From the NCBI GenBank assembly GCA_963675945.1, contig OY780932.1, forward strand, positions 1,640,503-1,704,502: a DNA stretch of 64,000 nt, written 5' to 3'. The notes beneath the pieces were generated by a model that was not told the origin of the DNA, did not search any database, and was given only the letters and a program-made list of their open reading frames with translations. The stretch is from Planctomycetota bacterium (GTDB lineage Bacteria; Planctomycetota; SZUA-567). Both the position numbers and the translations under genes were made by a program. This document shows positions 771-23,538 of the stretch, piece by piece (within the stretch, counting starts at the first letter, position 1; every line of letters starts with the position of its first letter).

Positions 771-790
771 CTGGCGAGCCTTTCTGCAAG

Positions 791-2170: not shown

Positions 2171-2459
2171 GTAAGTACCTTTTCGTGTTATTAGTTTGCT
2201 CTGTATGCGTGACCAAATCTATATTCTAGCGGTCGAGCGTAATTTAGCAATAGAGTAATTTGATCTCTAGCTCGGGTTTTTTTGGTATTTAACGGTCTGT
2301 AGGACAAACTTTGAGTCGATCAATACCAGTGCTTCTGACAGTAAAATTAATGAAGCTAAGGCTTGGACTCGGGTAGAATTGTTCATGCTGAAGTTGGTTT
2401 GTAGTTGTAACAAACAGATTTAAAGATTTATGATAAAGAGTGGATTAAGGGGTAAAGGC

Positions 2460-3119
2460 TTAGAAGGAGGTATAACTGTTGAGGCAGTCGTTGCAGAAAG
2501 CAGGTTGACGGTGGTATTTGGCTTCGTCTACCAGGCATTCACGATAGTATAACTCGCGGATATCGATCTCCTGGCAGTCAGCGTCGGATTTCGCGGTATC
2601 CACGGCGGCGGTCAAGCGGTATTCGGCGCCGGCATTGCTCAAGTTATTGATGCTCTCGATAGTTGAACCGTAGTCGCTGGTGTTGCCGATAGTTATTATT
2701 ATACTGGTATCTGTAAGTCCGGTAGGCAGTGCAAAATACTGGAGAGCTTCAGAAAAGCTCTCTTCGCAGGGTGAGGAATACGGGGTATAATGATCATCGG
2801 TGGCGCCAAAAGTATTGATCGCATCATCAATGATTTCTGAGGTCTCTTCGGCTTGTTCACCATTGCAGATAACACATGCCATACCTTGATTCAGCAACTC
2901 CTGGGCGAGTAGCTCAATATGTTCGACTGAGATCTTACTGACAATATTCAGTAACGCACTGAAGGGGCGTTTTTTGAAAGGGAGTGTTAAAGGTTTACCC
3001 GCTTCGTAGCGGATGGTGTAGAAGGTCTGATCACCTATTTTGCCCAGTTTGCCCTGATGCGTATTTGAAAAATACAGCTTTTTCAAATCAGGCTGTTCTG
3101 TATCGTCCTCAAAATCCAC
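2460..3119 (-). CDS. hypothetical protein (acidic, Cys-containing, 219 aa)
   Basis: Clean ORF in the position upstream of hslU where hslV would normally sit, but it has no HslV N-terminal Thr protease signature. No motif recognised. Confidence 0.4.
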   Translation of the reverse strand: MDFEDDTEQPDLKKLYFSNTHQGKLGKIGDQTFYTIRYEAGKPLTLPFKKRPFSALLNIVSKISVEHIELLAQELLNQGMACVICNGEQAEETSEIIDDAINTFGATDDHYTPYSSPCEESFSEALQYFALPTGLTDTSIIITIGNTSDYGSTIESINNLSNAGAEYRLTAAVDTAKSDADCQEIDIRELYYRECLVDEAKYHRQPAFCNDCLNSYTSF

Positions 3120-3500
3120 TTATTTCCCCCAACTGTATATAATAAGCAGCTTTGCGTCCTATAATAGTGGACGTAATACTTGCTTCATTCCTTTTCCCAA
3201 TGCATACTGGATGTACACAACATCTGCTAGCATATATATTGTGCTTCCCAACAACATCCAAATAAGCGACTTCGTAATTATCTATTTATGGGGCGTGAGG
3301 TCAACACTAAAATTGTTTTTTTGCGCCTTTTTTGCTCGTCTGGAGCCGGATAAAACTTTTTAAGTTTGATTAACCTTATGCCCCAATTATTATTAGGGAA
3401 AATCAGGATAATTTCCGATAATACTAGAGGTGGTTATGAAAAATATGTATAATCACGGGAGTAGTCAGAGTATGAGGTTTGCTGAATATCCGGAGGTAGA

Positions 3501-8152: not shown

Positions 8153-8239
8153 GGGCGAGTGGCGGAATCGGCAGACGCAAGGGATTTAAAATCCCTTGAG
8201 ATTTATCTCGTACGGGTTCAAGTCCCGTCTTGCCCACCA
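8153..8239 (+). tRNA. tRNA-Leu (anticodon TAA)
   Basis: 87 nt including CCA. Acceptor stem GGGCGAG/CTTGCCC, anticodon stem AGGGA/TCCCT with loop TTTAAAA, long variable arm, T-loop TTCAAGT. Confidence 0.85.
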
Positions 8240-8244
8240 ATAAC

Positions 8245-8539
8245 AATCCCCCTCGACATTTATGTCGAGGGGGATTATTATTGGTGGTAGTAAGTAAGGG
8301 TCTCCCGTTTGTCCTGAGATGCTTTTGCAGGCGAGTAGTCGAGCGTGCAAAAGTGCCCACCAATTCCTTTTTCTGCGAGCATTTATGTCGAGGGGGATTA
8401 TTATTGGTGGTAGTAAGTAAGGGTCTCCCGTTTGTCCTGAGATACTTTTGCAGGCGAGTAGTCGAGCGTGCAAAAGTGCCCACCAATTTCTTATTCGTCG
8501 ACATTAATGCAGGCAGGGATTATTATTGGTGTCAGTGAG
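8245..8539. repeat. tandem direct repeats (about 123-bp period; two full copies and one partial) immediately 3' of tRNA-Leu; each full copy ends in TGCCCACCAAT, a copy of the tRNA 3' terminus
   Basis: Copy 1 spans 8247..8380, copy 2 8381..8503, and the partial copy 8504..8539. Copy 1 begins with a 32-bp perfect palindrome, aatccccctcgacatttatgtcgagggggatt. The tgcccaccaat motif occurs at 8231 (tRNA), 8354 and 8477. Confidence 0.8.
8526..8539. repeat. left copy of the 14-bp direct repeat TTGGTGTCAGTGAG bounding the RM/defence island (attL-like junction)
   Basis: The identical 14-mer recurs at 18715..18728. The repeat-unit homology is interrupted exactly here and resumes at the right copy. Confidence 0.6.
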
Positions 8540-8830
8540 AGAGTATAATGGTCTAAGAAATTTGGATAGTTGAATAAGGTAGATTTTCCCGATAATATTA
8601 TGAGAGAATTGATGTAAAATATAAGTTGGGGCTGAAGACTAGTACCACTTTTGTTGTATTATAGGGGTTAAGTTGAACTTAGAATGTATACAGTAGAAAA
8701 TAAGTACCATATTGTTATTGCTTTGTGCTCTTGAGGTTGTATTTTGCTTGCGCAGAAAGTGATTTAGGGTAGGATTGTAGGGTGGTAGTAATTTGGGTAA
8801 GAAGTTATTTGATAGAAGGATAATGGAACA

Positions 8831-10297
8831 ATGATAACTGGGGAGCTCAGGAATAAGGTAGATGCGATTTGGGATGTGTTTTGGGCTGGGGGGATTGCTA
8901 ATCCGATGACGGTTATTGAGCAGTTTACTTATCTACTTTTTATCAAGGGGCTTGATGATAGGCAGAATGAGCTGGATAGTAATGACTCGTTGATAGGGAC
9001 TGTGAGTGAGAAGATATTTCCAGATGATAAGCAGGAGCTTCGGTGGAGTACATTTAAGCATTTGCCGGCGGAGAAGATGTTTGAGTTGTTTGTTGATCCG
9101 AAGGATGGCGTGTTTGCGTTTATCAAGAATTTGCATGCGGATAAGGATTCGGCATTTTCTAAGTATATGGGGGATGCGATATTTGCGATACCGAAGGCGG
9201 GAATGCTGGAGAAGATTGTTACTTCGATTGATAAATTGGAGATCAAGGGGAAGGATGCGAAGGGGGACTTGTATGAGTATCTGCTGTCGAAGATAGCGAC
9301 GTCGGGGCAGAATGGGCAGTTTCGGACACCGAGGCATATTATCAAGATGATGGTGGAGCTGATGAAGCCGGTGCCGACGGATACGATAATTGATCCGGCT
9401 GCGGGGACGTCGGGGTTTCTGGTGGCTGCTGGGGAGTATTTGCAGGAGCATCATGATGAGATATTCAAGAAGCAGGAGTTAAGGGAGCATTATAATAATG
9501 AAATGTTCTTTGGGTTTGATACTGATACGACGATGCTGCGTATTGGGGCGATGAATATGATGCTACATGGGGTGGAGAATCCGAATATTGAGTATCGGGA
9601 TTCGTTGTCGGGTGATAATCATGAGCGGGAGAGGTGTTCGTTGATATTGGCGAATCCGCCGTTTAAAGGGTCGCTGAATTATGAGGATGTGTCGGCGGAT
9701 ATACTCAAAGTGACGAAGACGAAGAAGACTGAGTTATTGTTTGTGGCTCTTATGATCAAGATGCTCAAGAAGGGCGGGAGGTGTGCGTGTATTGTGCCGG
9801 ATGGGGTGCTCTTTGGGAGTAGCGGGGCGCATAAGATGCTGCGGAAGGAGATTGTGGAGAAGCATAATCTGCGGGCGATTATTTCTATGCCGAGTGGCGT
9901 GTTCAAGCCGTATGCGGGAGTTAGTACGGCGGTGATAATATTTGATAAGACTGGGATTGGGGGAACATCACAGATCTGGTTTTATGATATGGAGAGTGAC
10001 GGGTATAGTCTGGATGATAAGCGGACGGCGCTCAAGAGTTCTGATATACCGGATATTATCGAGCGGTTCGGGAGGCTGGAGAAGGAGAAGAAGCGGAAGC
10101 GGACGGAGCAGTCGTTCATGGTGCCGGTGAGTGAGGTGGTGAAGAATGAGTATGACTTGTCGATCAACCGGTATAAAGAGATAGTGTATGAAGAGGTGGA
10201 ATATGATGAGCCGGCGGTGATACTGGAAAGAGTGGCGGAGATGGAGAAGGATATTGGTAAGGGGATTAAGGATTTGCAGAAGATGCTGAGCAAGTAA
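8831..10297 (+). CDS. hsdM: Type I restriction-modification system N6-adenine DNA methyltransferase subunit HsdM
   Basis: HsdM N-terminal domain followed by the catalytic LANPPF motif and AdoMet motif DPAAGTSGFL; 488 aa. Confidence 0.9.
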   Translation: MITGELRNKVDAIWDVFWAGGIANPMTVIEQFTYLLFIKGLDDRQNELDSNDSLIGTVSEKIFPDDKQELRWSTFKHLPAEKMFELFVDPKDGVFAFIKNLHADKDSAFSKYMGDAIFAIPKAGMLEKIVTSIDKLEIKGKDAKGDLYEYLLSKIATSGQNGQFRTPRHIIKMMVELMKPVPTDTIIDPAAGTSGFLVAAGEYLQEHHDEIFKKQELREHYNNEMFFGFDTDTTMLRIGAMNMMLHGVENPNIEYRDSLSGDNHERERCSLILANPPFKGSLNYEDVSADILKVTKTKKTELLFVALMIKMLKKGGRCACIVPDGVLFGSSGAHKMLRKEIVEKHNLRAIISMPSGVFKPYAGVSTAVIIFDKTGIGGTSQIWFYDMESDGYSLDDKRTALKSSDIPDIIERFGRLEKEKKRKRTEQSFMVPVSEVVKNEYDLSINRYKEIVYEEVEYDEPAVILERVAEMEKDIGKGIKDLQKMLSK

Positions 10298-10313
10298 GGT
10301 AAGGGTATATTAT

Positions 10314-10739
10314 ATGAGTACTGAGATTGACTATGGAAAATTTAAGAAGGCATTGAAGTTGCTTGAGGAGCAGAATAACCGGCTTAATTCTGAGGTTGGG
10401 AGTATGGAAGAATGGGTAATTGATGCTGTTAAGGAGTCGACTATACAGAGATTTGAGACATGTTGGGACTGCCTGTGGAAGGTATTGAAGAGGTATTTGG
10501 AGATAGAGATAGGGCTTGCTGAAGTTCCGAATGGTCCGAATCCGATTTTGAGATTGGCGAATGAGAATAGTGTCTTGACTAGTTCTATTGAGGATTGGTT
10601 GATGTATGCGAGGGTAAGAGTTGGTACGTCACATGATTATAGCGGAGTGAAGGCTACTGATGCGTTGAAGTGTATGAGTAGTTTTATTGATGATGCGGTT
10701 AAGCTTTATGAGAAGATGAGTGGAGAGAGCTGGAGATAA
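10314..10739 (+). CDS. nucleotidyltransferase substrate-binding (HEPN, HI0074-like) toxin-antitoxin component
   Basis: 141 aa helical protein of the HI0074/NTase_sub_bind type. Its stop overlaps the start of the downstream minimal nucleotidyltransferase (ATAATG). Confidence 0.6.
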   Translation: MSTEIDYGKFKKALKLLEEQNNRLNSEVGSMEEWVIDAVKESTIQRFETCWDCLWKVLKRYLEIEIGLAEVPNGPNPILRLANENSVLTSSIEDWLMYARVRVGTSHDYSGVKATDALKCMSSFIDDAVKLYEKMSGESWR

Positions 10740-11056
10740 TGATTGATCATATACGTGATATAGATTTATCTGATGAGGAGTATCGTGAGGTGATGGCGTT
10801 GGTTGAGCGTTATATTCCTTGGGTTGAGGTATGGGTTTATGGTTCACGTGTTAAGCATACGGCAAAACCATATTCTGATTTGGATATGGTAGCTTTTGCT
10901 AGTGGTGAGAGTGTTTGTGCGGTTGCGGATTTGCGAGAGGCTTTTGAGGATAGTTATTTGCCATTCAGGGTTGATTTATTTATTTGGAAAGAGATACCGG
11001 AAGAGTTTAAGGAAGTTATTCGGGATGAGCATGTAGTTTTACAGGAAAAGAAATAG
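10739..11056 (+). CDS. minimal nucleotidyltransferase (MNT, HI0073/MntA-like) toxin-antitoxin component
   Basis: GSRVKHTAKPYSDLDM is the pol-beta-type NTase motif G[SG]x9-13Dx[DE]; 105 aa, translationally coupled to the upstream HEPN gene. Confidence 0.7.
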   Translation: MIDHIRDIDLSDEEYREVMALVERYIPWVEVWVYGSRVKHTAKPYSDLDMVAFASGESVCAVADLREAFEDSYLPFRVDLFIWKEIPEEFKEVIRDEHVVLQEKK

Positions 11057-11440
11057 GATTTGCAGAAGTAACGTTAATATAGCGTGTGATTTTAACCGAA
11101 GCGGTGAATACAGAATTGAGCGATCTGGCAAGCCAAGTAAATCGCTTTAGAAATTTACATAGTAGACTGAAGCGATACACAGGTCGCCAAGCAGGTGACA
11201 TTTTTCATCTGGGATGTATGTGAATTCCGAACTGGTGAGGAATGAGTCGTGTGCTTACTTTTGTCTGCTGGTCGGACGAAAAGTCAGTCGAAGTCTTCTG
11301 AGAATAGCGAATCCGACGCAGGAGGCGGGAGGATAGATGGAGCAACTTGTTGCGACACCCGAAGGGCAAGGACAGGGATGTCCGCAGTCAAGAAGGCTGA
11401 GAGTTTAGTCGTAGTTAAACTTGAAAATAGGGTTGAGTAA

Positions 11441-12598
11441 ATGAGTGAAAAGAAAAATAAAAAGCCGATTAATGAACATAAGTGGTATTTACTAATTATT
11501 ATTGTTGCTTTGGGGCTATTTTATATATATCCACTTTATACTCTGCTTGGAATTGGGTTTTTCTCACTAATAATTCATTTGCGATATGACCTTGATGACA
11601 TAGGAAAAATTGGTAGGAAGCATCCTGTATGGACAACAATTATATTATTTACATTTGGTATTGAGTTATATTTGTGGATTTATAAATATGGGTTATTATG
11701 GAAAGAACAGTATGCTCAACAGCCTTGGATAGAGTTGCTCGCAAATATTAAAAATGGTAAAGTTGTTGTAGGAAATAGTACCTTAGACTTTACTGAGTTG
11801 TTAAAAAAAGGCGTTGTTATGATGATTAGTACACCAGCATCAATTATTCCTATCATTCTTGCTCCGTATTTTTGGGTATTGTGGATTTGGAGGCATAATG
11901 ATAAAGAGTATGATAAAAAGAGAAATGAAGAGCTTGATGAGCAGGGTCGATTTAATCGGATAATTGATATGGTTGGGTCTACTGAGGTGAATTTACGATC
12001 AGGTGGAATGATGTTACTTGATGGCTTTCTAACTAGGTATGAAGATAATGATTTGGAATATAAATATTATTGTGGTGCTGCAATTTCTGTATTAGCAAAT
12101 AATTATTTCCCTGTTAATGATGGTATGTTTAATAGCAGAGTGATGTGTCATAAATCTTTTGCTGTTTGTTTAATATTACAAAATAAGCATTATAAAATAT
12201 GTGGAAAGCTAGCAGGTACTCCGTTATGTTTTGATTTTAATGTAAATGATTATATCGTCAGGTATTATGAGCTTTGTATTGATAATAGTCAGGAATTTGT
12301 TTTTGTTCGTTGTGTTGTAAGATTAGATATATTATTGTGTTTATTACGTAATAGTGAATATGCAAAAATATTTTCAAAAATGAAATTTAAAAAATCAATT
12401 TTTGAGATGACGGATTATTATTTAAAACATAGAATTCCCGATGATTTGATAGTTTTTTTTAGTGATAAAAATAAAGTTTATGAATGTTTATTGATGTGTC
12501 CTGAAGATAATTTTGCGAATAAGGAAGCATTTAAAATTATTAATAATTCAAATGATAATTTCTATATTGGTTTTAAATATGATAAAGAAGGAAATTAA
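11441..12598 (+). CDS. hypothetical multi-TM membrane protein, very AT-rich, translationally coupled to hsdS
   Basis: 385 aa with 3-4 N-terminal TM helices and a Cys-rich soluble C-terminal part; about 30% GC against about 45% in hsdM. Its stop overlaps the hsdS start (TAATG at 12596..12600). Confidence 0.55.
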   Translation: MSEKKNKKPINEHKWYLLIIIVALGLFYIYPLYTLLGIGFFSLIIHLRYDLDDIGKIGRKHPVWTTIILFTFGIELYLWIYKYGLLWKEQYAQQPWIELLANIKNGKVVVGNSTLDFTELLKKGVVMMISTPASIIPIILAPYFWVLWIWRHNDKEYDKKRNEELDEQGRFNRIIDMVGSTEVNLRSGGMMLLDGFLTRYEDNDLEYKYYCGAAISVLANNYFPVNDGMFNSRVMCHKSFAVCLILQNKHYKICGKLAGTPLCFDFNVNDYIVRYYELCIDNSQEFVFVRCVVRLDILLCLLRNSEYAKIFSKMKFKKSIFEMTDYYLKHRIPDDLIVFFSDKNKVYECLLMCPEDNFANKEAFKIINNSNDNFYIGFKYDKEGN

Positions 12599-13731
12599 TG
12601 AATAAATGGGAACTTGTTAAGCTTGGAGATGTAGTAACATTTCTTGATAATATGAGAGTGCCTGTAAAAGCTAGTGATAGAGTTGAAGGGGAATATCCAT
12701 ATTATGGGGCAAATGGACAGCAAGGAACAATTAATGATTATATTTTTGATGAATCATTAGTTTTGTTGGCTGAAGATGGTGGTAATTTTAATGATCCTAC
12801 TCGCCCTATTGCATACATTGCAAAGGGGAAGTATTGGGTTAATAACCATGCTCATGTTTTGCGCCCTTTAGAAATGATTACATTGAAATATTTATATTGG
12901 GTTTTAGCATTTTGTAATGTTATGCCTTATATTAAAGGGGCGACACGTCCAAAACTTACTAAAACTGACGCAAGTAGAATCAAAATCCCCCTCCCACCTC
13001 TGGCAACACAGAAACGCATAGTCAAGATACTGGACAAGGGGCAGGAGTTGATTGATAAGCGGAAGCGGCAGCTTGAGGAGATGGATGAACTGGTTAAGAG
13101 TTTGTTTTATGATATGTTTGGTGATCCTGTGACTAATCCTATGGGATGGGAAAAGGGAATAATTAGAGATTTAGCCGTGAAAACTCAGTATGGTACTAGT
13201 AAAAAGGCTCATGAAACAGATGGTGAGTTTCCTGTATTAAGAATGAATAACATAACATATAAGGGTACTTGGGACTTTAGCAGTCTTAAATATGTTGATT
13301 TTGATGAGAATGAAAAAGCAAAGTATTTAGTGTATAAAGGTGAGTTGCTTTTCAATAGAACTAATAGTAAGGAGCTAGTTGGTAAAACTGCTGTTTATAA
13401 AAATACTGAACCAATGGCATATGCTGGTTATCTTGTTAAGTTGATAGTGAATGAAAAAGCAAATTCTGAGTATATCTCTGCATATTTGAATTCAAATCAT
13501 GGTAAAGCAGTTTTGCTTAATATGGCAAAAAGTATTGTCGGTATGGCTAATATTAACGCTGAAGAATTAAAGAAGATTAAAATTTTGATCCCTCCTGTTT
13601 CGCTGCAAAATGAATTTGCAACCAGAGTACAAGCAATAGAAACAGAAAAAGAACGAATGCAGAAGTCACTCAAAGAGCTTGAGGATAATTTTGCAGCGTT
13701 GATGCAGAGGGTGTTTAAAGGGGAGTTGTAG
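12598..13731 (+). CDS. hsdS: Type I restriction-modification specificity subunit HsdS
   Basis: Two target-recognition domains, a central conserved LPPLATQKRIVKILD helix, a C-terminal coiled-coil repeat, 377 aa. Confidence 0.85.
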   Translation: MNKWELVKLGDVVTFLDNMRVPVKASDRVEGEYPYYGANGQQGTINDYIFDESLVLLAEDGGNFNDPTRPIAYIAKGKYWVNNHAHVLRPLEMITLKYLYWVLAFCNVMPYIKGATRPKLTKTDASRIKIPLPPLATQKRIVKILDKGQELIDKRKRQLEEMDELVKSLFYDMFGDPVTNPMGWEKGIIRDLAVKTQYGTSKKAHETDGEFPVLRMNNITYKGTWDFSSLKYVDFDENEKAKYLVYKGELLFNRTNSKELVGKTAVYKNTEPMAYAGYLVKLIVNEKANSEYISAYLNSNHGKAVLLNMAKSIVGMANINAEELKKIKILIPPVSLQNEFATRVQAIETEKERMQKSLKELEDNFAALMQRVFKGEL

Positions 13732-13871
13732 TTAGCTGAATACGCTGGCACGAAGCTTATATCTTGATGAATTTGGTAATTTGAATGCGGTGCTGGATTG
13801 TCATGAGGATTTTAATAGTAATATGAATTTTGTGGGTGAGTAGGTATATTTGAATAATAAGGACAATATTT

Positions 13872-14183
13872 ATGATTACCATTAAGATTAATAATGAATA
13901 CCGAAGGCTGAAAGATACGAGTAAAGAGTGGATTGTAAATATGTTTAGGAATATTCAAGCAGCGGGTGCTAACCCGTGGTATATTATCACTGTTGAAGAT
14001 CAGAATGTATATTCAGCATTTTGTTCGAATAATATTCCAACTTCACAAGAGTTGTGTCCGAAGTATACCCATACACTAGAAGAAAAAGAATTATCAGTTC
14101 TTTGGAAAACCCTTTGTGATGGGAGTAGTAACGTAAATGAAGTTTTGGCTTTTCTTGATAAAATTCCAAGTAAATATTTATAG
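13872..14183 (+). CDS. hypothetical small protein (103 aa) translationally coupled to downstream TIR-domain gene
   Basis: AT-rich ORF. Its stop at 14181..14183 is followed by GGAGGTG, the RBS of the TIR gene, 3 nt later. Confidence 0.45.
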   Translation: MITIKINNEYRRLKDTSKEWIVNMFRNIQAAGANPWYIITVEDQNVYSAFCSNNIPTSQELCPKYTHTLEEKELSVLWKTLCDGSSNVNEVLAFLDKIPSKYL

Positions 14184-14186
14184 GAG

Positions 14187-15146
14187 GTGATGATGGCAGG
14201 AGTATCGGTTTTCTTCTCATATTCGCATGCAGATGAAGAAATGAGAGATCAATTAGAGAAACACCTTACAATGTTAAAACGTAATGGTAATATATCAACA
14301 TTTCATGATAGAGAAATATTAGCTGGTGCTGAATTCGGTAATGAAATAGATCAAAATTTAATTGAAGCAGGAATAATTTTGTTATTAGTTAGTCCTGATT
14401 TTTTAGCGTCAGAATATTGTTATTCGATAGAGATGCAAACAGCTTTGAAAATGCATAAAGAAAATAAAGCAGTGGTTATCCCTGTAATTTTAGATCATTG
14501 CGATTGGCGAAGTGCTCCTTTTAGCTCTTTGATGGCTGTACCAAATGATGCAAAGCCAATTACTGAGTATGCAAATCAAAATAAGGCATTTGACGAAATT
14601 ACAACAGAGATAAGAAAAGTAGTTCAAAGTATTGCTGATACGGCTGATATCGCATGTTCAACAGCTAATTTTGAAGTTGAAAATTGTGAACCAAAAGTTG
14701 TTTGTAATGATAGATCAGCTAATTTGCATGTAAAGAAAGAATTTACTGAGCTTGATTTTAATGATTTTTTGAATAACTCATATGATTATATTGCAAAATA
14801 TATGCAGAACACACTTGAAGAATTTGAAAAAAGAAATGTTGGATTTCAAACAAGATTTAATTCTAATGATTCAAAAATTGAAATTTTAATATTTAATAAT
14901 GGAGTTAAAGTTGCTTATTGTAGAATTATGAAAGGAAGAGATGTTTCTTATATGATTGATTCGTTAGTATACTCTGAATCTGAGATGGGTAATTCTTTTA
15001 ATGATTCATTAAATATTGAAAATGATGGAACTTCTTTATTTTGGAAGCCAAGTTTTAATGTTGGGTATAGCCAAAAAGAAGAATTATTGTCGATGAAAGG
15101 GGCTGCTGAGTTTTTTTGGGATAAAGTTATTAGTAGGTTTCAGTAA
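14187..15146 (+). CDS. TIR-domain protein (N-terminal TIR_2-like domain plus about 170-aa C-terminal domain of unknown function)
   Basis: VFFSYSHADEEMRDQLEKHL ... IILLLVSPDFLASEYCYSIEMQTAL ... VIPVILD matches the bacterial TIR fold (SxSH, conserved Glu, hydrophobic beta-strand motifs). Strong RBS GGAGGTG. Confidence 0.7.
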   Translation: MMMAGVSVFFSYSHADEEMRDQLEKHLTMLKRNGNISTFHDREILAGAEFGNEIDQNLIEAGIILLLVSPDFLASEYCYSIEMQTALKMHKENKAVVIPVILDHCDWRSAPFSSLMAVPNDAKPITEYANQNKAFDEITTEIRKVVQSIADTADIACSTANFEVENCEPKVVCNDRSANLHVKKEFTELDFNDFLNNSYDYIAKYMQNTLEEFEKRNVGFQTRFNSNDSKIEILIFNNGVKVAYCRIMKGRDVSYMIDSLVYSESEMGNSFNDSLNIENDGTSLFWKPSFNVGYSQKEELLSMKGAAEFFWDKVISRFQ

Positions 15147-15297
15147 TTAGAATTAATGAAGTTTTCAACAAACTGCCCAGTGCGGGCTGCGCACCGAGGG
15201 ATGCAAGGGGCGAGGAGCCCCTGCGGAAGGGGTTTGGGGAAGGAACGTCCCCATTAGGAGTGACTTTGAACTATAAGGTTGGGTAAAAGGGATAGAG

Positions 15298-18200
15298 ATG
15301 AGTAACTTTGGGTTTTTGGATAAGCATAGTATGTTCAGGACGATTACGCCGCTGTGTAAAGAGGCGGAGAGTGCGCTCGGGGTGTCTAATGCTATCGCGG
15401 CGCTGTCGGCTAGGAGAGCGCTGGAGAGTGCGGTGAAATGGATGTACTCACATGACAGTACGCTTGAAGTGCCGTATCAGGATAACCTTTCCGCACTGAT
15501 TCATGATTATAAATTCAAAGACCTGATAGATGAAAGACTGTTTCCGAGAATCAAGTTCATTATAACACTGGGGAATAAAGCAGCGCATCAGTCTATGCCG
15601 ATGCGACGGGATGAGAGTGTGAAAGCGCTGGAGAATCTGTTTCATTTTATGAGGTGGATTACGTACGCTTATGGCGGTGAGAACTGTGCGGTGAAGTTTG
15701 AGGTTGGGAAACTGGCGGGTAGTGCTGAATATGAGCGGAAGACGAAGGCGATACAGGATGAGTTCAGAGAGAAGAAGGTTGAGTGGGAAGCGGAGAAGAA
15801 GAAGCTTGAAGAGCTGCTGCTGAGTAAGGAAGAGCGGGAAGAGGTAACGCAGAAGCGAGAAGAGAATGAGCAGAAGGCTGATTTTGCGTGTGAAGATATA
15901 TCTGAGTTCAAGACGAGAAAGGTTTATATCGATCTGGCGCTGGAGATGGCTGGCTGGGAGATTGGGGCTGACTGTAGGGAAGAGGTAGAAGTAAGCGGGA
16001 TGAAGAATGCTTCGGGAGTGGGGTTTGTTGATTATGTGCTGTATGCTGCTGACGGTAAGCCGCTCGCGGTAGTCGAGGCGAAGCGGGCGGCTAAAGATCC
16101 GAAGATTGGTAAGGTGCAGGCGAAGCTGTATGCGGATTGTCTGGAAGAGGAGTATGGTGTTCGACCGCTTATCTATTATACCAATGGATTTGAATACTGG
16201 TTGTGGGAGGATGCGTTCTATCCGGAGAGAAGGGTGTCGGGGATTGCGACGCGGGACAGCCTTGACTGGTACAGGCAGAGAGTAAAGACACGGAAGGATA
16301 TTTCTGCTGTTAAAGTGAATGATGAGATATCAAACAGACCTTATCAGAAAGCTGCGATTCAGGCGGTGTGTGAGAATCTGAGTAAGGCACAGAGGAAGTC
16401 TTTACTGGTGATGGCTACGGGGGCGGGCAAGACGCGTACGGCTATATCGATCGTTGATGTGCTGACTAAGAATAACTGGATTAAGAATGTCTTATTCCTT
16501 GCTGACAGGCGTGAGCTGGTTAAACAGGCTAAGCAGAACTTTTCTAAATTACTGCCGCATCATACAATCTGTAATCTGCTGGAGAAGAAGACGGAGGATA
16601 ATTCACTCAACAGTAGGATTATATTCTCTACTTATCCGACGATAATGAATGCGATTGATGTGACAAAGAAGGATGATGGTTCGACGCTCTTTACGGTAGG
16701 GCATTTTGACTTAATTATTATTGATGAATCACACCGTTCAATTTATAAAAAATATCAGGATATCTTTGCGTACTTTGACTCGTATCTACTGGGGCTTACT
16801 GCTACGCCGAAGAGCGATATCGGGAAGAATACTTATGGGTTCTATGATATTGAGAATGGAGTGCCGACGCATGCGTATACGCTGGATGAGGCGATACGTG
16901 ATGAGTGGCTGGTGCCGTATCGGGTGGTGAATACTACGCTGAAGTTTCTCACTTCTGGGGTTAAGTATGATGAGTTGTCGGATGAGGAGCAGGAGGAGTG
17001 GGAGGATAAGATTGGTGAGGAGATTGACAGTATCAGCAGTAACGAGGTGAACAGGATACTCTTCAATGATAATACTGTGGATACGGTTATTCAGGCGTTG
17101 ATGAATGATGGGATTAAGATTGAGGGCGGGGATAAGATCGGGAAGACGATTATCTTTGCTGCCAATACGAAGCATGCGGAGTATATTCTTGGGAGATTCA
17201 ATAAATTGTATCCGCATTACGCGGGGAAATTTGCTGCGACTATTTATAACGGGGTGAATTATGTTGATTCGCTGATCGATGATTTTAAGGAGGAGGATAA
17301 ATTTCCGCAGATTGCTGTGTCGGTGGATATGCTTGATACGGGGATTGATGTGCCGTCGATTGTCAATCTGGTCTTCTTTAAGAAGGTGCGCTCTAAAGCG
17401 AAGTTTCATCAGATGATTGGGCGTGGGACTAGGCTTTGTGAGGATCTCTTCGGTATTGGGGAGGATAAAGATGGATTTCGTATTTTTGATTATTGTTCGA
17501 ATTTTGAATTCTTCAAGGAAAATACGCAGGGGATTGAGACGAGACCGCAGAGGTCGCTCTCTGAGTGTCTGTTTATTATAAAGACTGAGATTGCGAAATT
17601 GCTTGAACATGCAACCTATCAGGAGAAGGAGTATATTAATCACCGTAAAGAGTTGGTGACTGGGTTGGCGAAAGAGGTGTATATGCTGGATGACTCTAGT
17701 CTTATCAATAGACTTCATTTAAAGTATATTCATGAATATCGTGATGTGAATGCATGGCAGAGTATATCTGACAAGATGCTGGCTGATATTAAAGAGCATA
17801 TTGCGCAGATTGTGATTCCGTCTACAGAGGATGAGTTGAAGAAACGGTTTGATTACTTGATGTATGCGATTGAGCATGCGTGTCTTGACCGGAAACAGCC
17901 TGCGCCGAAGAATAGGCGGAAGTTACAAACAACGGCTGAGAAGCTTGAGGAGAAGGGTAATTTGCCACAGGTGCAGCGTAACCTTGAGATTATAGAGTAT
18001 GTACAGTCTGAGGAGTATTGGGAGAATGCGTCTGTGTTTGATCATGAGCGGGTGCGTATTGCGCTGCGTGAGCTTGTGGTTCTCCTTGAGAGAGAAAACG
18101 CTGCAACGTACTTCACCAACTTTATGGATGAAGTGCTTGAGGTGCAGGAGATTGAGGGAGTGTACACTACGGATGAGTTTGTGAGCTACCGCAGGAAGGT

Positions 18201-18642
18201 TGAGGCTTATCTCAAAGAGCATCAGGATGACTTTGTTGTTTATAAGTTGCGTCACAATGAAACGCTCAACTTGAAGGATGTTGAGCATCTGGAGGATCTT
18301 CTGTGGAATGAGCTTGGGAGTGAGAATGATTACAAAACAGAGTATGGTGAGCAGCCCTTGCTTGAATTAGCTGCCAAACTTGTCGGCTTAGACCGTAATA
18401 CAGCGCAGGGTTTGTTCTCTGAATTTTTGTCTGATAATTCTCTCAATAGCAATCAGATTAATTTTGTCTCTCAGATTGTTGATTATATTGAGGATAATGG
18501 TGTGATTGATAAAAAGGTATTGCATGATCATCCGTTCAATCAGCAGGGGAGTATTGCTGAGCTGTTTGAGAATAAATTGCATGTTGTGACTAGTATAGCG
18601 AAAATTCTTGATGCTGTTAATGAGCGGGTTAGAGTGGGGTAA
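15298..18642 (+). CDS. hsdR: Type I restriction-modification endonuclease/helicase subunit HsdR
   Basis: 1114 aa. HsdR N-terminal region, PD-(D/E)xK nuclease motif FVDYVLY...VVEAKR, SF2 helicase Walker A MATGAGKTRTA and DExH box IIIDESHR. Confidence 0.9.
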   Translation: MSNFGFLDKHSMFRTITPLCKEAESALGVSNAIAALSARRALESAVKWMYSHDSTLEVPYQDNLSALIHDYKFKDLIDERLFPRIKFIITLGNKAAHQSMPMRRDESVKALENLFHFMRWITYAYGGENCAVKFEVGKLAGSAEYERKTKAIQDEFREKKVEWEAEKKKLEELLLSKEEREEVTQKREENEQKADFACEDISEFKTRKVYIDLALEMAGWEIGADCREEVEVSGMKNASGVGFVDYVLYAADGKPLAVVEAKRAAKDPKIGKVQAKLYADCLEEEYGVRPLIYYTNGFEYWLWEDAFYPERRVSGIATRDSLDWYRQRVKTRKDISAVKVNDEISNRPYQKAAIQAVCENLSKAQRKSLLVMATGAGKTRTAISIVDVLTKNNWIKNVLFLADRRELVKQAKQNFSKLLPHHTICNLLEKKTEDNSLNSRIIFSTYPTIMNAIDVTKKDDGSTLFTVGHFDLIIIDESHRSIYKKYQDIFAYFDSYLLGLTATPKSDIGKNTYGFYDIENGVPTHAYTLDEAIRDEWLVPYRVVNTTLKFLTSGVKYDELSDEEQEEWEDKIGEEIDSISSNEVNRILFNDNTVDTVIQALMNDGIKIEGGDKIGKTIIFAANTKHAEYILGRFNKLYPHYAGKFAATIYNGVNYVDSLIDDFKEEDKFPQIAVSVDMLDTGIDVPSIVNLVFFKKVRSKAKFHQMIGRGTRLCEDLFGIGEDKDGFRIFDYCSNFEFFKENTQGIETRPQRSLSECLFIIKTEIAKLLEHATYQEKEYINHRKELVTGLAKEVYMLDDSSLINRLHLKYIHEYRDVNAWQSISDKMLADIKEHIAQIVIPSTEDELKKRFDYLMYAIEHACLDRKQPAPKNRRKLQTTAEKLEEKGNLPQVQRNLEIIEYVQSEEYWENASVFDHERVRIALRELVVLLERENAATYFTNFMDEVLEVQEIEGVYTTDEFVSYRRKVEAYLKEHQDDFVVYKLRHNETLNLKDVEHLEDLLWNELGSENDYKTEYGEQPLLELAAKLVGLDRNTAQGLFSEFLSDNSLNSNQINFVSQIVDYIEDNGVIDKKVLHDHPFNQQGSIAELFENKLHVVTSIAKILDAVNERVRVG

Positions 18643-18714
18643 GCTACTCAATGAAGGTAGATTATGAGTAAGAAATATAAGAAGAAGATTACGTTGTTTA
18701 ATGTGTTGTCTGTG

Positions 18715-18728
18715 TTGGTGTCAGTGAG
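18715..18728. repeat. right copy of the 14-bp direct repeat TTGGTGTCAGTGAG (attR-like junction), followed by a repeat-unit remnant (18729..18768) homologous to the 8290..8330 and 8413..8453 units
   Basis: Sequence identity to 8526..8539, and continuation of the interrupted repeat unit (taagggtctctcgtttgtcctgagatgcttttgcaggc). Confidence 0.6.
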
Positions 18729-20277
18729 TAAGGGTCTCTCGTTTGTCCTGAGATGCTTTTGCAGGCTGGGACTTACGGGGAGTTTTTTGGAAGGGCTTAC
18801 TGCCGATAAAAATACGGCACAGAAGAGTAATTCCAGAAGCGGCAAGACAGATTACGGCAATGCCGCAGAGCATGTTTTTGATTCCCAGCCAGTGCATAAC
18901 CATCGGCAGAAAAAATACACCTGAAACAGCGCCGATCTTGGAACAGAAAGCGGCCAGCCCGTGGATTGTACCGCGCATTTCAGTCGGGAATATTTCCACC
19001 GGCAGCATGAAGGTGGTTGAGTTCGGTCCGGCGTTCATCAGTAAGTTGAAAATTATAAATCCGGAGAAGATAACCCACATTGCTGCCTGTGGCTTTCCGT
19101 CAGCTCCTAGAGCGTTGGAGAGGATAATTAGCCCTAGCGCCATTCCGATAAAACCAATAACTTGCAGACGGATTCGACCGACTCTTTCTACCAGAAGAAT
19201 ATTTAAGATAAATCCGCCCAGCAGGAAAAGATCGACAAAAGCAGAGCCTTCGGTTGAGAGCATTACATTGCTGAAGATGTTGTAGTGGCCTGAATGCGCG
19301 CCTTTGGATACGATATCGGTAATGATAAGCGGGGTGAATATGCCGATGCCGTAAGTTGCCACATCCATCAGGAACCAGGGAATGGTTACCAGAATTGTCC
19401 GCCAGATATATTTTGGGGTTAATAGTTCATGGTAGCACTGCCCATGTTTATTTATCAGGGTTTCCTGATATTCTTGCTCTTCTATAAGTATGCGTTCGAT
19501 GACTTTCATCTTGTAAGGCACATATTTGCGGATAATTTTGGCTGCGTCATGTACTCTTCCTTGCAGTAGGAGCCAACGCGGACTTTCTGGCACATATGAG
19601 CGTAGAAAGAGGACGATAACCGCGGGCAGAGCTAGAAAAGTCAGATATAGTCTCCAGGAAAAAATCTGATCCGGCAGCATCAGCATTATGCCGATGCCGC
19701 TCAGAGCTGCAAAGATCATCCCCACCGACTGGAAGGAGAAAGCCGCGATTAGCAGCCGCCCGCGCAGGTGAGAAGGCATTAATTCTGTGACGTAGGAAGC
19801 GGCGATGGGGTAATCCGAGCCTGCGGCGTAACCGACTATGAATTGGCAGACTGAGAGCATGTAGACATCACTGGAGAGTCCGCTGAGCAAAGCTCCTACA
19901 ACTGCTATAAGCATATTGAAGGTGAAGAAAAACCTGCGTCCGAAAATATCAGCAAGCCTGCCGGAAATTAGCGAACCGATAGCGGCGCCGAGGAGGGTCG
20001 AAACACCGGACAAGCCAAGCTGCCAGTATACCAATTCGAAATTATTCTTGATAAGCGGAAGGGCTACACCTATGGAAAAAATGCAGTATCCTTCAAGAAA
20101 TATCCCCATCGCCGCGAGAATCCAGACATAAAGATGAAGTTTGGAAAATTTTGCTTCGTCAAGCATTTCATTGAGGTTGGTTGCCACCTGATTTTTATTT
20201 GTCATTTTATGTCCTGTAAATTTTGTTGTTGCCTTGCCCGTGTAATGAGGCTTGGATTTTAATGTGATGTGTAACAT
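18721..20277 (-). CDS. MFS transporter (sugar/metabolite:H+ symporter-like)
   Basis: 518 aa with 12 predicted TM helices and a sugar-porter-like GRR/PESPRWL motif. The last 16 codons are encoded by the repeat/att region. Confidence 0.75.
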   Translation of the reverse strand: MLHITLKSKPHYTGKATTKFTGHKMTNKNQVATNLNEMLDEAKFSKLHLYVWILAAMGIFLEGYCIFSIGVALPLIKNNFELVYWQLGLSGVSTLLGAAIGSLISGRLADIFGRRFFFTFNMLIAVVGALLSGLSSDVYMLSVCQFIVGYAAGSDYPIAASYVTELMPSHLRGRLLIAAFSFQSVGMIFAALSGIGIMLMLPDQIFSWRLYLTFLALPAVIVLFLRSYVPESPRWLLLQGRVHDAAKIIRKYVPYKMKVIERILIEEQEYQETLINKHGQCYHELLTPKYIWRTILVTIPWFLMDVATYGIGIFTPLIITDIVSKGAHSGHYNIFSNVMLSTEGSAFVDLFLLGGFILNILLVERVGRIRLQVIGFIGMALGLIILSNALGADGKPQAAMWVIFSGFIIFNLLMNAGPNSTTFMLPVEIFPTEMRGTIHGLAAFCSKIGAVSGVFFLPMVMHWLGIKNMLCGIAVICLAASGITLLCRIFIGSKPFQKTPRKSQPAKASQDKRETLTH

Positions 20278-21007
20278 TTACAATTTTCATGAAGCTTGTT
20301 TGTATACCTCAAGCGGGCTTTTTTAATCCACGTCTCTTTCGTGGTCGACTGCCAACCTTCTTTGCTATTGCTTTCACCGATTCGTCAAGCTTATTTGCTC
20401 TGGGTTTGACCCTCCTTATCATGGCTTTTCTTTGGGCTTGCTTATTTCTATTGTTCACGCTGCTGCGGTTATGCCGTCTTTTACTGCTGATTGTACTTTT
20501 ATGTACCCTGAGAATTATGGTAATAAATATGAATCACTTTTTCCTCTTACAATATGACTTTGATAACTGAACGAGCTTAATAAGTAAGGTAATGATATTT
20601 CTGCCCTATGCGCTTTCCTTGAGTAGAATATGATAGTATACTTTTGGCGTAATATTTAACTGAGACCTTACTCTTTCTTCTTTTACTCGGGTATTGTCGT
20701 TGAAATCTGAATTTACAAGATTAAAGAATATCAGTTATTTGTTTGTATGGAAAGTTTGAAAAATGTTAGGATAAAGATTGTTTATGTGCAGCTTGCAGTG
20801 ATATGAGTTTGGTGGCAATTGATTTATGGTTTTGAGTAGCAGGTTGATAGCATTCTCTTTGGTTGGGGTTGCCTCTGGAATGATAAGAGCGTTAAGAAGT
20901 GCGGAATCTGAATTTTTTATTGTTGTATGTAATATCATGCCTTCAGAATGCGGTTATTCACTCTGAAGGCAGAATTGAATGCAGATTGCTTCTCATTATA
21001 AAGATAG

Positions 21008-21667
21008 TTATAACGGCTCGTAGCGGCGCATTATATCCCCGGTGATATCGATGATCTCGCCCTCTAAAAACGGCGGCGCCCCCTCTTCTGGGGCTGAGGC
21101 TTGGGGGTGGCGCAGCATCCATTTATTTGCTGAAACCAGGAGCTTATCCTCGCCGTACCCAGGCTGTGCCGGGGCAAGCTTGCCGCAGGTTCCCTGTAGC
21201 AGCGCTACGGCAACGCGGAAGCCCTTGCCCAACCTGCCGTCACACGGTGCATAATGCAGCGTATAGGGCAGGATCTCCAACATGGTGCCGGCAGGTACCA
21301 GGAATGCTTCTAAATGTTTGGTGTCGTATCTCTGACCGGTCATATCTGCGGTAGATCCTAAAATAAACACCGTAGCGCTTGCGGTTATGCAGAGTTCACT
21401 GCACTTGTGATATTCAACTGCATCCAGGGTTGTATTCGTCCCGTTACAGTAACCTAGCTGGATAGGCAGACCGCCGAAGAAACGCTGCCTGAGTTCGGGG
21501 AAGATACTCTGGCTCTCCAGCTCTGGCGCTGCCGCGACATAATTGAAACCGGTATTGGGGAGGGCGGTCACGGCTGTATAGTGCTCGACAAAGCCGGTGA
21601 CATCATACCCTTCTATTATCCGGGCGTACCGGGTAAAACTGCTGTCTTGAACAGATTTTAGCTCCAA
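21008..21667 (-). CDS. cupin-like protein related to the ureidoglycolate-lyase (AllA) / DUF4867 group, function unknown
   Basis: N-terminal pattern LKSVQDSSFTRYARIIEG resembles the AllA-like xLxxxxLSxExFxxYGxxIE start; last gene of the TRAP operon. Confidence 0.35.
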   Translation of the reverse strand: MELKSVQDSSFTRYARIIEGYDVTGFVEHYTAVTALPNTGFNYVAAAPELESQSIFPELRQRFFGGLPIQLGYCNGTNTTLDAVEYHKCSELCITASATVFILGSTADMTGQRYDTKHLEAFLVPAGTMLEILPYTLHYAPCDGRLGKGFRVAVALLQGTCGKLAPAQPGYGEDKLLVSANKWMLRHPQASAPEEGAPPFLEGEIIDITGDIMRRYEPL

Positions 21668-21703
21668 CGTCTACTCCTTTTTTAATAATCTATGATTCAC
21701 GGT

Positions 21704-22996
21704 CTATACCTCTATTCCGAACAAGCGGGGGAGCCAGAGAGTAAGCTCAGGGATAAAACCTGTAGCCAGAACAATCAAGAGGTTGAAGGCCAGGAACGGC
21801 AAGACCTCCTTACTGACTTTGAAGAGATCCACCTTTGCTAGATCGGTTATGGCAAAGAGAATATTCCCCACTGGTGGCGTGCAGAGGCCGATATTGGTAT
21901 TGATGATCAGCATGATTCCGAACTGAATTTCATTGAGCCCCATCTTGGCGGCAATCGGCCAGAGAATGGGGGCGAATAGAATGATCGATACTCCGGGATC
22001 CATCCAGGTGCCCATAAACAGGAAGAAGGCATTTACCAGCAGAACCAGGAGTATCTTACTGGTGGTGATGGAGAGGAAGAAGTTCTCGGCGACCTTCGGC
22101 ACCTGCTCTGCTCCGAAGACCCAGGTGATTACCGAGGCTCCGGCAATAATAAGATATAGTTTCGCCGAACTACGTGCTGCGCCCTTTAGCGATGCCAGCA
22201 GATCCTTCCACTTCAGCGAGCGATAAACGATAAAGCCGATAATCAGCGAATAGAATACCGAGACGGCTGCGGCCTCAGTCGGGGTGAACATCCCGGAGAG
22301 GATACCTGCAATAATTATCACCGGCATCAGCATTGCGAGGAAAGCATCCTTCAGGCTGAACATGAATTCTTTCGGCGTGGTTTTGACTACGACTTTCGGG
22401 TACTTGCGGTACGAGGAGATTGCTGCAACGACACCCATATCGGCGACGCCGATCAGCAGTCCTGGAATAATCGCTCCGAGGAACATTCCGCCTACTGAGA
22501 CCTTCATAACCGCTGCATACAGGACGATTACCGTGCTGGGAGGGATAATCGGGCCGACCAGCGACGAGGCTGCAGTCACCCCGGCGCTGAACTCCTTGTC
22601 ATAACCCTGCTTCTCCATCGAGGGGATAAAGATGGTGCCAAGTGCCGCAATATCACCTAAAGCTACCCCAGTTATCCCGGCAAACAGGATACTTGCCAGT
22701 ACATTTACCTGAGCCAAGCCGCCGCGTACCCGGCCAATAACGATATTGGAGAACTGAATAAGCCTGTCTGAGATTCCGGCTCGGTTCATGATATCGCCTG
22801 CCAGCATGAAGAAGGGGATAGCGGTTAGGACAAAGACATTTATCCCTCCAAATACCTTTTCCGGCATCATCATCAGGTTCATGAAGTCCCCGGAAAAGAG
22901 CAGATACAGAAAGCCGCTTATCAACATCGAGAAACCAACCGGCATCCCTAAGAATAAGAAGGCTAGAAACACCAGCAAAAAGACACCTAAGGTCAT
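21704..22996 (-). CDS. dctM: TRAP transporter large permease subunit (DctM family)
   Basis: 430 aa, about 12 TM helices, DctM-type sequence. Confidence 0.85.
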   Translation of the reverse strand: MTLGVFLLVFLAFLFLGMPVGFSMLISGFLYLLFSGDFMNLMMMPEKVFGGINVFVLTAIPFFMLAGDIMNRAGISDRLIQFSNIVIGRVRGGLAQVNVLASILFAGITGVALGDIAALGTIFIPSMEKQGYDKEFSAGVTAASSLVGPIIPPSTVIVLYAAVMKVSVGGMFLGAIIPGLLIGVADMGVVAAISSYRKYPKVVVKTTPKEFMFSLKDAFLAMLMPVIIIAGILSGMFTPTEAAAVSVFYSLIIGFIVYRSLKWKDLLASLKGAARSSAKLYLIIAGASVITWVFGAEQVPKVAENFFLSITTSKILLVLLVNAFFLFMGTWMDPGVSIILFAPILWPIAAKMGLNEIQFGIMLIINTNIGLCTPPVGNILFAITDLAKVDLFKVSKEVLPFLAFNLLIVLATGFIPELTLWLPRLFGIEV

Positions 22997-22998
22997 GC

Positions 22999-23538
22999 TT
23001 ACTCCTTTACCTGCAAGTCAAGATCTTTGTTGCCATACCTGTCCGGGTGCTTTAAATCTTGCAGAAAATTTCTAATCAAAAATATACTCATAATAATCCC
23101 GCTCAACGGTATGGCAAAATACGGCCACATCATGGAGATGCCGAGTCCGCTGGACCACATATACTCCATAAACAATGCAGTGTCAAACCCTACAAAAATC
23201 CAGATCAACATCGTCGCAAAGATACAGATATCAAAGAACAACCGCAGCACATAGCGCAGTAAACGGGGCAGGTGATCAAAAAAATAGTTTACTGTTATAT
23301 GCTCTCGCTCATAGGTTACGGTTGCAGCGGTAAGTAGAGCCATATATACAATCAGATAGCGGGTCAACTCTTCTGCCCAGGGAAAAGAGTATTTGAACAG
23401 ATATCGAGAGAAAACCAGCGCCGTCATCACTATTACCGAGATAAATAGCAGAATAGCCGAGAGCAGAACCAGTTTGTCTGACAGTCTGCTTAAAAATGAG
23501 CCGATAGACGTTAAAAGCCCTGAGGATGATGATTTCAC
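22999..23538 (-). CDS. dctQ: TRAP transporter small permease subunit (DctQ family)
   Basis: 179 aa, 4 TM helices, sits directly between dctP and dctM. Confidence 0.75.
   Translation of the reverse strand: MKSSSSGLLTSIGSFLSRLSDKLVLLSAILLFISVIVMTALVFSRYLFKYSFPWAEELTRYLIVYMALLTAATVTYEREHITVNYFFDHLPRLLRYVLRLFFDICIFATMLIWIFVGFDTALFMEYMWSSGLGISMMWPYFAIPLSGIIMSIFLIRNFLQDLKHPDRYGNKDLDLQVKE

Follow-up and report, generated by a model that had tools for sequence, protein, structure and literature searches.

Cis-mobilizable elements (CIMEs), as described in Streptococcus, are decayed integrative and conjugative elements (ICEs) or integrative and mobilizable elements (IMEs); they lack genes for integration and transfer, keep their attachment (att) sites attL and attR, and often lie in tandem at the 3′ ends of tRNA or other genes (PMC5704250). 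In Bacteroides, mobilizable elements of the NBU1 type use a tRNA-Leu gene as their target and integrate at its 3′ end (PMC5704250). The nesting of defense genes inside type I restriction-modification (RM) operons is also established: TgvAB lies inside the type I RM operon of VPI-2 (PMC11411939), and operons with embedded defense genes are the subject of a survey by Payne et al. (2024; bioRxiv 10.1101/2024.01.29.577857, as cited in PMC11411939). Here we describe a defense island of 10,175 bp that is organized around a type I RM (hsd) operon. It occupies positions 8540-18714 of a 64,000-nucleotide stretch of Planctomycetota bacterium DNA (contig OY780932.1, positions 1,640,503 to 1,704,502), hereafter called the window, where it splits a 123-bp repeat unit between a tRNA-Leu gene and a sugar transporter gene of the major facilitator superfamily (MFS). 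We assign a probability of about 60% to the reading that the island is a site-specifically integrated element that is now decayed or depends on an integrase supplied in trans, in the manner of a CIME.

The likeness to CIMEs extends to several features. Direct repeats at a gene's 3′ end border the island, which carries cargo only and has no integrase, relaxase, or conjugation genes. Its locus holds tandem att-like remnants and has alternative occupants, and relatives of its cargo lie near a relaxase gene and a tRNA-Leu fragment. In contrast to CIMEs, its att sites are putative, its descent from an IME is presumed, its host is an uncultured bacterium of the PVC group, and no ICE or IME with matching specificity was encountered as a partner. 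It lacks mobility genes as a CIME does, and its flanking repeats agree with the definition only formally. Inside it there is no remnant of an integrase or mobilization gene.

NBU1 reportedly has a common core of 14 bp. The island resembles it in measuring about 10 kb, in lying next to tRNA-Leu, and in having a short identity core; in L003 and L005, two related loci, there are a relaxase gene, MobC, and a tRNA-Leu 3′ fragment. However, NBU1 encodes IntN1, a relaxase, and oriT, whereas the island has none of these, and its core sits at the MFS stop codon rather than in the tRNA gene. Compared with other RM operons that harbor nested defense genes, the island has the same arrangement, with hsdM, embedded genes, hsdS, further embedded genes, and hsdR, and the embedded content varies among loci (HEPN/MNT, TIR, SIR2, DUF3800, DUF8370/8371). 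The embedded genes themselves are different ones, including a recurrent membrane-protein family and a pair formed by a 103-aa protein and a ThsB-like protein, and their role in defense is putative.

The ends of the island are marked by two identical copies of the 14-mer TTGGTGTCAGTGAG (Table 1). An earlier note on this DNA had reported both copies and had listed a 14-mer common in the genome as a point against its reading; exact-match searching found the two copies at the reported places and nowhere else in the window. When up to two mismatches were allowed, there were three matches against 0.35 expected, a number reached in 0 of 100 shuffles, and the additional match is unrelated. The chance of a given 14-mer recurring at one fixed position is 4^-14 = 3.7e-9. 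The same note had observed that homology among the repeat units is broken at the left copy and resumed at the right copy, and indeed the third unit downstream of tRNA-Leu(taa) is split in this way, with its left and right parts both located.

The duplicated 14 bp consist of the final MFS codons, the stop codon, and 6 nt of the 3′ untranslated region (UTR), and the right-hand copy preserves the MFS reading frame and stop codon. Reconstitution of the 3′ end of the target gene is usual for integrase-mediated islands. The 14-mer is not tRNA sequence, and its left copy begins 287 bp downstream of the tRNA end at 8239. The proposal that the att-like repeats carry the tRNA 3′ end thus does not apply to the island's own 14-mer; the sole echo of the tRNA is the 10-nt motif GCCCACCAAT, with which each unit of the repeat array starts. 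A classical tRNA-gene-integrated island, whose repeats are the tRNA 3′ end and which abuts the tRNA gene, was rejected, since the 14-bp repeats have neither property and no integrase lies beside either of them.

A close relative appears to preserve the site as it was before insertion. In the protein and genome collections there is a single close MFS relative (95% identity in protein and 93.7% in DNA over the MFS flank; next best, 46%), which is encoded on contig CAUVYI020000011.1 (L002) of a metagenome-assembled genome (MAG) labeled "Planctomycetota bacterium" at NCBI. On this contig, at least three linker-bearing units are followed by a last unit that continues uninterrupted into the MFS gene (...GGGGATTATTATTGGTGTTAGTGAGTAAGGGTCTCCC...), and the uninterrupted site reads TTGGTGTTAGTGAG once. 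When the island and one 14-mer were deleted from the window in silico, the product was gap-free and colinear with L002 over 212 nt, of which 196 are identical (92.5%). The predicted junction sequences are ...ATTATTATTGGTGTCAGTGAGTAAGGGTCTC... for the empty site and ...GTTGTCTGTGTTGGTGTCAGTGAGAGAGTATAATGG... for the circle. The empty allele with a single 14-mer that had been predicted is therefore present in L002, at least for the terminal unit. For the MFS gene of L002 (10001-11556), the database entry lists two separate products, 323 and 163 aa long, and the gene may be frameshifted.

Another relative carries different DNA at the same locus. The 5.8-kb ENA contig L001 is 99.3% identical to the window over the left flank, comprising a DksA-like gene and the tRNA. 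After unit 1 it has GCCCACCAAT plus 21 nt that match unit 2 of the window at 18/21 positions, a score reached in 1 of 1000 shuffles. Positions 1-3250 hold a distinct island of mobile-element-like character, with a DnaB_C helicase fragment, a weak HTH_17 match (excisionase-like), an HTH_3 match (HigA-like), and two open reading frames (ORFs) of unknown function. A 70-aa terminal ORF of this island reads into the array and was suspected to be an integrase N terminus; it has no homolog and no Pfam match. Because L001 carries another island after unit 1, the locus is a hot spot in which insertions have occurred at two points or more.

By composition the island is foreign. Its GC content is 40.0%, against 47.8% in the rest of the window, and falls as low as 28-33% among the embedded genes. 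GC skew is +0.12 outside the island and +0.38 within it, where single genes reach +0.55. Profile scans bear out the gene content that the earlier note had listed, namely hsdM, HEPN, MNT, a transmembrane protein, hsdS, a small ORF, TIR, and hsdR, with no recombinase. Among the eight island ORFs, two of which have unknown functions, matches to Pfam, PADLOC, and NCBIfam models revealed no recombinase, transposase, relaxase, or type IV secretion system protein.

Related hsd modules are present in four other genomes (L003-L006, of which L003, L005, and L006 measure 3.8-3.9 Mb) and in two other contexts, with amino acid identities of 90-92% for HsdM and 78-79% for HsdR. A 100% match to HsdR exists only in the window's own genome, and all matches beyond these four are at or below 60%. 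Downstream of the module in L003 (ERZ21862645 ctg38544l) and L005 (ERZ21878204 ctg9573c) come three small genes and other cargo, and then a relaxase gene, a MobC/NikA gene, and 28 bp that perfectly copy the tRNA-Leu(taa) 3′ end (relaxase gene onward: L003 17174-20467; L005 20218-22766); a full tRNA gene is lacking there. L003 has in addition a C-terminal fragment of a tyrosine integrase (Phage_integrase, 133 aa) after the tRNA-Leu copy. This region looks like the right part of a tRNA-Leu-associated mobilizable element that contains a related hsd module. In L004 and L006, the module's neighbor is an RT-Cas1/Cas6 locus. None of the four genomes has a close MFS homolog, and their HslU proteins fall outside the 90% cluster of the window's HslU; the greater conservation of HsdM relative to this housekeeping protein suggests horizontal spread of the module. 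The search for a donor of hsdM and hsdR in other taxa, which had been recommended earlier, recovered related modules in other contexts and no donor; no attP form or cognate integrase was found.

Site-specific integration is favored because the duplication is clean, the target gene's end is restored, inverted repeats and a transposase are lacking, and the locus is a hot spot. Foreign composition and the occurrence of the hsd module in other contexts, near mobilizable-element features in L003 and L005, point in the same direction. Of the original claim of a site-specific integrated element, the discrete 10.2-kb insertion in one unit stands firmly, whereas we infer recombination, as opposed to a 14-bp target-site duplication, from this combination of features.

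The following course of events would account for the locus. A horizontally acquired defense island would have entered the last 123-bp unit of the tRNA-Leu/MFS hot spot by conservative site-specific recombination, in which a 14-bp core on a circular donor was joined to its identical counterpart at the stop codon of the MFS gene. The junctions would have been made by a site-specific recombinase, most likely of the tyrosine type. The element may once have been larger and may since have shed its genes for integration and transfer, leaving the cargo; the L003 and L005 loci show how the original vehicle possibly appeared. With those genes gone and the cargo left, the island would be CIME-like, and a fossil unless a matching integrase is supplied in trans. 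Integrase genes usually sit adjacent to the att core, and here that place is taken by a 65-bp remnant of an IS3-family insertion sequence (IS). An IS-associated deletion by the left core could have removed the integrase, and the remnant is a plausible deletion site. This remnant at the left tip and the hsd relatives beside a relaxase gene and a tRNA-Leu fragment favor a decayed remnant.

Several observations weigh against integration of this kind. A perfect 14-bp repeat is equally expected from target-site duplication, and inverted core-binding sites at the 14-mer are not obvious. No integrase or other recombinase, transposase, or relaxase is encoded by the 20 further ORFs of the window that were scanned (28 in total), which include all of those within 8 kb and have housekeeping or transport functions. 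In the collections searched, there was no second copy of the island ends, no attP form, and no donor; the attP-like junction and HsdM had no match in IMG/VR, and the whole island had none in plasmids by megablast. Direct repeats comparable to the 14-mer are absent around the hsd modules of L003-L006, which leaves no basis for defining a general att. The IS3 remnant is so near the left core that the left boundary may have an IS-related origin. Moreover, the L002 contig starts inside the array, and emptiness is shown for the terminal unit alone. Because the left-flank contig of the same MAG (L007) also ends too early, inside dapF and 1.7 kb short of the tRNA, a complete empty locus is not demonstrable.

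The chief alternative is that the 14 bp are a target-site duplication. An integrase or transposase acting in trans with 14-nt staggered cuts, either casposase/Cas1-like or of some unknown type, would then have pasted in a linear or circular hsd cassette. This would account for a repeat that is perfect despite lying in the most variable 8-nt zone of the unit, because no matching attP is needed, and it agrees with the tight boundaries of the hsd module, which in three contexts reach from the vicinity of hsdM to the stop codon of hsdR. However, the island has no terminal inverted repeats (its first and last 150 bp align with a score of 15, equal to the shuffle mean of 15.3), and Cas1, PolB, or a transposase is encoded neither by it nor by the other scanned ORFs of the window. 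No duplications flank the other hsd loci. The sole transposase-related sequence is the 65-bp IS3-family end, and members of this family generate target duplications of only 3-5 bp. Casposons produce 14-15-bp duplications and prefer tRNA genes or gene 3′ ends. The island is like them in duplication length and in having a target near a tRNA and at a gene 3′ end, and unlike them in lacking Cas1, a family B polymerase, and terminal inverted repeats, for which reason a casposon was rejected. Target-site duplication seems to us a rather improbable origin for the repeat.

Illegitimate recombination based on microhomology or replication, whether homology-facilitated after DNA uptake or caused by template switching, could likewise duplicate 14 bp with no dedicated recombinase. 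The lack of a recombinase and of recognizable att architecture fits such an event, and the array offers ample homology to anchor one end. Such insertions, however, tend to leave the target deleted or scrambled and to rely on microhomology only a few bases long. In the present case the target is exactly restored, with the MFS stop kept, and there is independent evidence that mobile elements have used the locus, making this route unlikely. It is very doubtful that the type I RM operon with its embedded defense genes is itself a mobile cassette, moved by a trans-acting enzyme that duplicates 14 bp of the target. Such a cassette would have tight ends, starting about 120-290 bp upstream of hsdM and stopping at most 72 bp from the end of hsdR, and its contexts in this clade would be the tRNA/MFS repeat array, the locus with a relaxase gene and a tRNA-Leu fragment, and the CRISPR-adjacent site. 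Finally, although the related genomes carry contig names from metagenome assemblers, so that the window is probably metagenome-derived as well, and related contigs break inside the array, it is extremely improbable that the junctions are an assembly artifact across the repeats (a strain chimera), since a chimeric join would not yield a clean 14-bp duplication with both unit halves in register and the exact HsdM, HsdR, and flanking proteins of the window are on record on one 3.91-Mb contig.

Two other classes of element were considered and rejected. A DDE transposon or composite IS lacks support in terminal inverted repeats or a transposase, the only relevant sequence being the 65-bp IS3 left end, for which the right-end match is not significant. 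A Xer-dependent element integrated at dif (IMEX) was dismissed because GC skew shows no sustained sign change in the window and the 14-mer is not dif-like by eye.

Read as a decayed integrated element, the island would be a clean natural example of defense cargo that has outlived its vehicle, with intact-looking junctions and every mobility gene gone. Together with the related loci, it shows in an uncultured lineage of the PVC group the patterns known from Firmicutes and Proteobacteria, namely the nesting of defense genes within RM operons and the build-up of elements at att sites. With a single 14-bp core and a single empty site, the locus also provides a small testable substrate for finding the integrase of the hot spot. 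In other respects the island is an ordinary though tidy case and changes no concept.

Table 1. Features of the island and of the tRNA-Leu/MFS locus, with positions in the window
Feature	Positions	Strand	Basis or remarks
tRNA-Leu(taa)	8153-8239	+	ARAGORN; Rfam tRNA, 57.4 bits
Repeat unit 1, 123 bp	8232-8354	+	GCCCACCAAT (true tRNA 3′ end), hairpin, copy of last ~15 MFS codons, 22-nt linker GAGTAGTCGAGCGTGCAAAAGT
14-pair hairpin directly 3′ of tRNA	8245-8276		Terminator scan; inverted repeat, 96% complementary
Repeat unit 2, 123 bp	8355-8477	+	96% identical to unit 1
Repeat unit 3, left part	8478-8539	+	Ends in left 14-bp repeat
Left copy of TTGGTGTCAGTGAG	8526-8539	+	Exact-match search; candidate attL core or target-site duplication
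IS3-family left-end remnant, 65 bp	8544-8608	+	4 bp inside left repeat; 84% identity to left end of 1323-bp IS in L003; local alignment score 80
hsdM, full-length type I RM methyltransferase, 488 aa	8831-10297	+	Pfam N6_Mtase 2.4e-67, HsdM_N; PADLOC MTase_I 1.2e-185, profile 2-490/491
HEPN-type NTase-substrate-binding protein (HepT-like toxin)	10314-10739	+	Pfam NTase_sub_bind 9.9e-18; NCBIfam HI0074 family below cutoff
Minimal nucleotidyltransferase (MntA-like antitoxin)	10739-11056	+	Pfam Polbeta, NTP_transf_2; NCBIfam MntA 2.1e-8, below cutoff
385-aa membrane protein	11441-12598	+	Hydrophobic N-terminal segments in translation
hsdS specificity subunit, 377 aa, two target-recognition domains	12598-13731	+	Pfam Methylase_S 1.6e-41, two stretches; PADLOC Specificity_I 5e-103
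103-aa protein beside TIR gene	13872-14183	+	80% aa identity to L003, 73% to L006
TIR-domain protein, ThsB-like	14187-15146	+	Pfam TIR_2 2.1e-15; PADLOC ThsB1 2.4e-94, profile 3-315/319
hsdR restriction subunit, 1114 aa, N-terminal DUF4145, EcoEI_R_C tail	15298-18642	+	Pfam; PADLOC REase_I 2.5e-161; NCBIfam EcoAI-family R subunit 8e-78, below cutoff
Right noncoding tail of island, 72 bp	18643-18714	+	Between hsdR end and right 14-mer
Right copy of TTGGTGTCAGTGAG	18715-18728	+	Holds MFS stop: tca at 18721-18723 on +, TGA on -
MFS/sugar transporter gene, 3′ end is the insertion target	18721-20277	-	Pfam Sugar_tr 2.2e-47, MFS_1; ORF coordinates
Repeat unit 3, right part	18729-18766	+	Last ~13 codons of MFS gene

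The repeat units were framed from the motif GCCCACCAAT, and the array is regular in this framing. The motif occurs in the window only at 8232, 8355, and 8478, compared with 0.14 occurrences expected by chance. Each unit comprises GCCCACCAAT, a left hairpin arm that is degenerate to a variable extent, a right arm (...GGGGGATTATTATTGGTG), a variable 8-nt zone, a 38-nt core, and a 22-nt linker. The core, TAAGGGTCTCCCGTTTGTCCTGAGATGCTTTTGCAGGC, copies the last MFS codons and is found three times in the 64 kb against 0.00 expected; it has no match in IMG/VR or in the JGI metagenomes. The 8-nt zone reads GGTAGTAA in units 1 and 2 of the window and TTAGTGAG or TTAGTAAG in L002, and is the most variable part of the unit.

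There are three units in the window, at least four in L002, and one plus a fragment in L001, and the linkers are alike in all of them. The units are best read as remnants or duplicates of an att region, given that the tRNA-end motif and a copied MFS 3′ end are present in every one and that 21 nt of unit 2 correspond to the tip of the L001 island. Their later amplification by unequal recombination is likewise the best reading, supported by the identical linkers and differing copy numbers. This supports calling the array "att-like" in a loose sense only, as the crossover points of past elements are not definable. The arms of the hairpin that follows the tRNA extend to 26 nt (8234-8259 and 8262-8287), and the structure is probably an ancestral bidirectional terminator between the tRNA and MFS genes. 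In an Rfam scan of the array region, the tRNA was the sole match.

The IS3-family remnant at the left end of the island is cut off just after the start position of orfA. The full 1323-bp element is present twice in L003 (3976-5298 and 21794-23116), in copies that are 99.9% identical, one of which interrupts the homolog of the window's 385-aa membrane protein. A candidate right end of the IS (8597-8651) and IS-like stretches of the right tail scored marginally or no better than shuffles, similarity between the island ends and the att region of L003 and L005 was within or near shuffle expectation, and all of these were rejected. The right tail and positions 8609-8707 have no homolog in any related locus compared. 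A second IS3 remnant in the window, at about 59535-60271, is an internal fragment by a MatE gene and is 77.7% identical to L005 14898-15424 over 533 bp.

A complete type I RM system is predicted from the coverage of the profiles, with HsdM aligned to positions 2-490/491, HsdS, with its two recognition domains, to 6-390/392, and HsdR to 9-1079/1107. The adjacent HEPN and MNT genes overlap by 1 nt and score above the Pfam cutoffs, as befits a HepT/MntA (type VII) toxin-antitoxin pair, with the NCBIfam equivalogs below cutoff. A Thoeris system was rejected: despite the strong ThsB1 match of the TIR protein (2.4e-94), no ThsA model (SIR2/SLOG or TM-Macro) matched any island protein. The 103-aa ORF always precedes the full-length ThsB1-like TIR gene where the two occur (window 13872-15146; L003 8561-9835; L006 8686-9869), and the small ORF is 73-80% identical between loci. 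The two may form an undescribed TIR module nested in type I RM operons.

All five loci share the order hsdM, one or more membrane-protein paralogs, hsdS, variable genes, and hsdR, and the recognition domains of HsdS differ between them. In blastp comparisons, the membrane proteins form a family with lengths of about 350-440 aa and a C-terminal part rich in Cys, present in one or two diverged copies (36-62% amino acid identity) between hsdM and hsdS in 5/5 loci. Neither the family nor the 385-aa member in the window matches a Pfam, PADLOC, or NCBIfam model, and the latter has no match in the JGI metagenomes. The slot before hsdR is occupied by the 103-aa/TIR pair in L003 and L006, by Ymh and SIR2 in L005, and by DUF8370/8371 in L004.

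DNA homology of the L003-L006 modules to the window is confined to the stretch between 8708, at 123 bp upstream of hsdM, and 18641, at the stop of hsdR. The HEPN/MNT pair is confined to the window and has no counterpart in L003-L006. It is an extra insertion between the hsdM stop and the intergenic segment 11097-11302, which directly follows hsdM in L003 (3318-3515) and L004 (3513-3621; 92.7% over 109 nt). In L006, an RT-Cas1 fusion of 921 aa and a Cas6-family gene (16497-23339) lie 3 kb downstream of the hsd module. The + strand of the window is G-rich almost throughout, whatever the orientation of the genes, and the coding-strand GC skew of the hsd genes ranges from +0.22 to +0.46 in all five genomes.

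Downstream of hsdR, the related loci share a conserved irregular hairpin of about 115 nt with a T-tract terminator (L003 13457-13610, L005 13456-13612, L004 13752-13906, L006 13736-13888). This hairpin reaches the gathering score of no Rfam family and is absent from the window island, which ends 72 bp after hsdR. RNAalifold predicts 40 pairs for it, seven of which have compensatory double changes, among only three distinct sequences.

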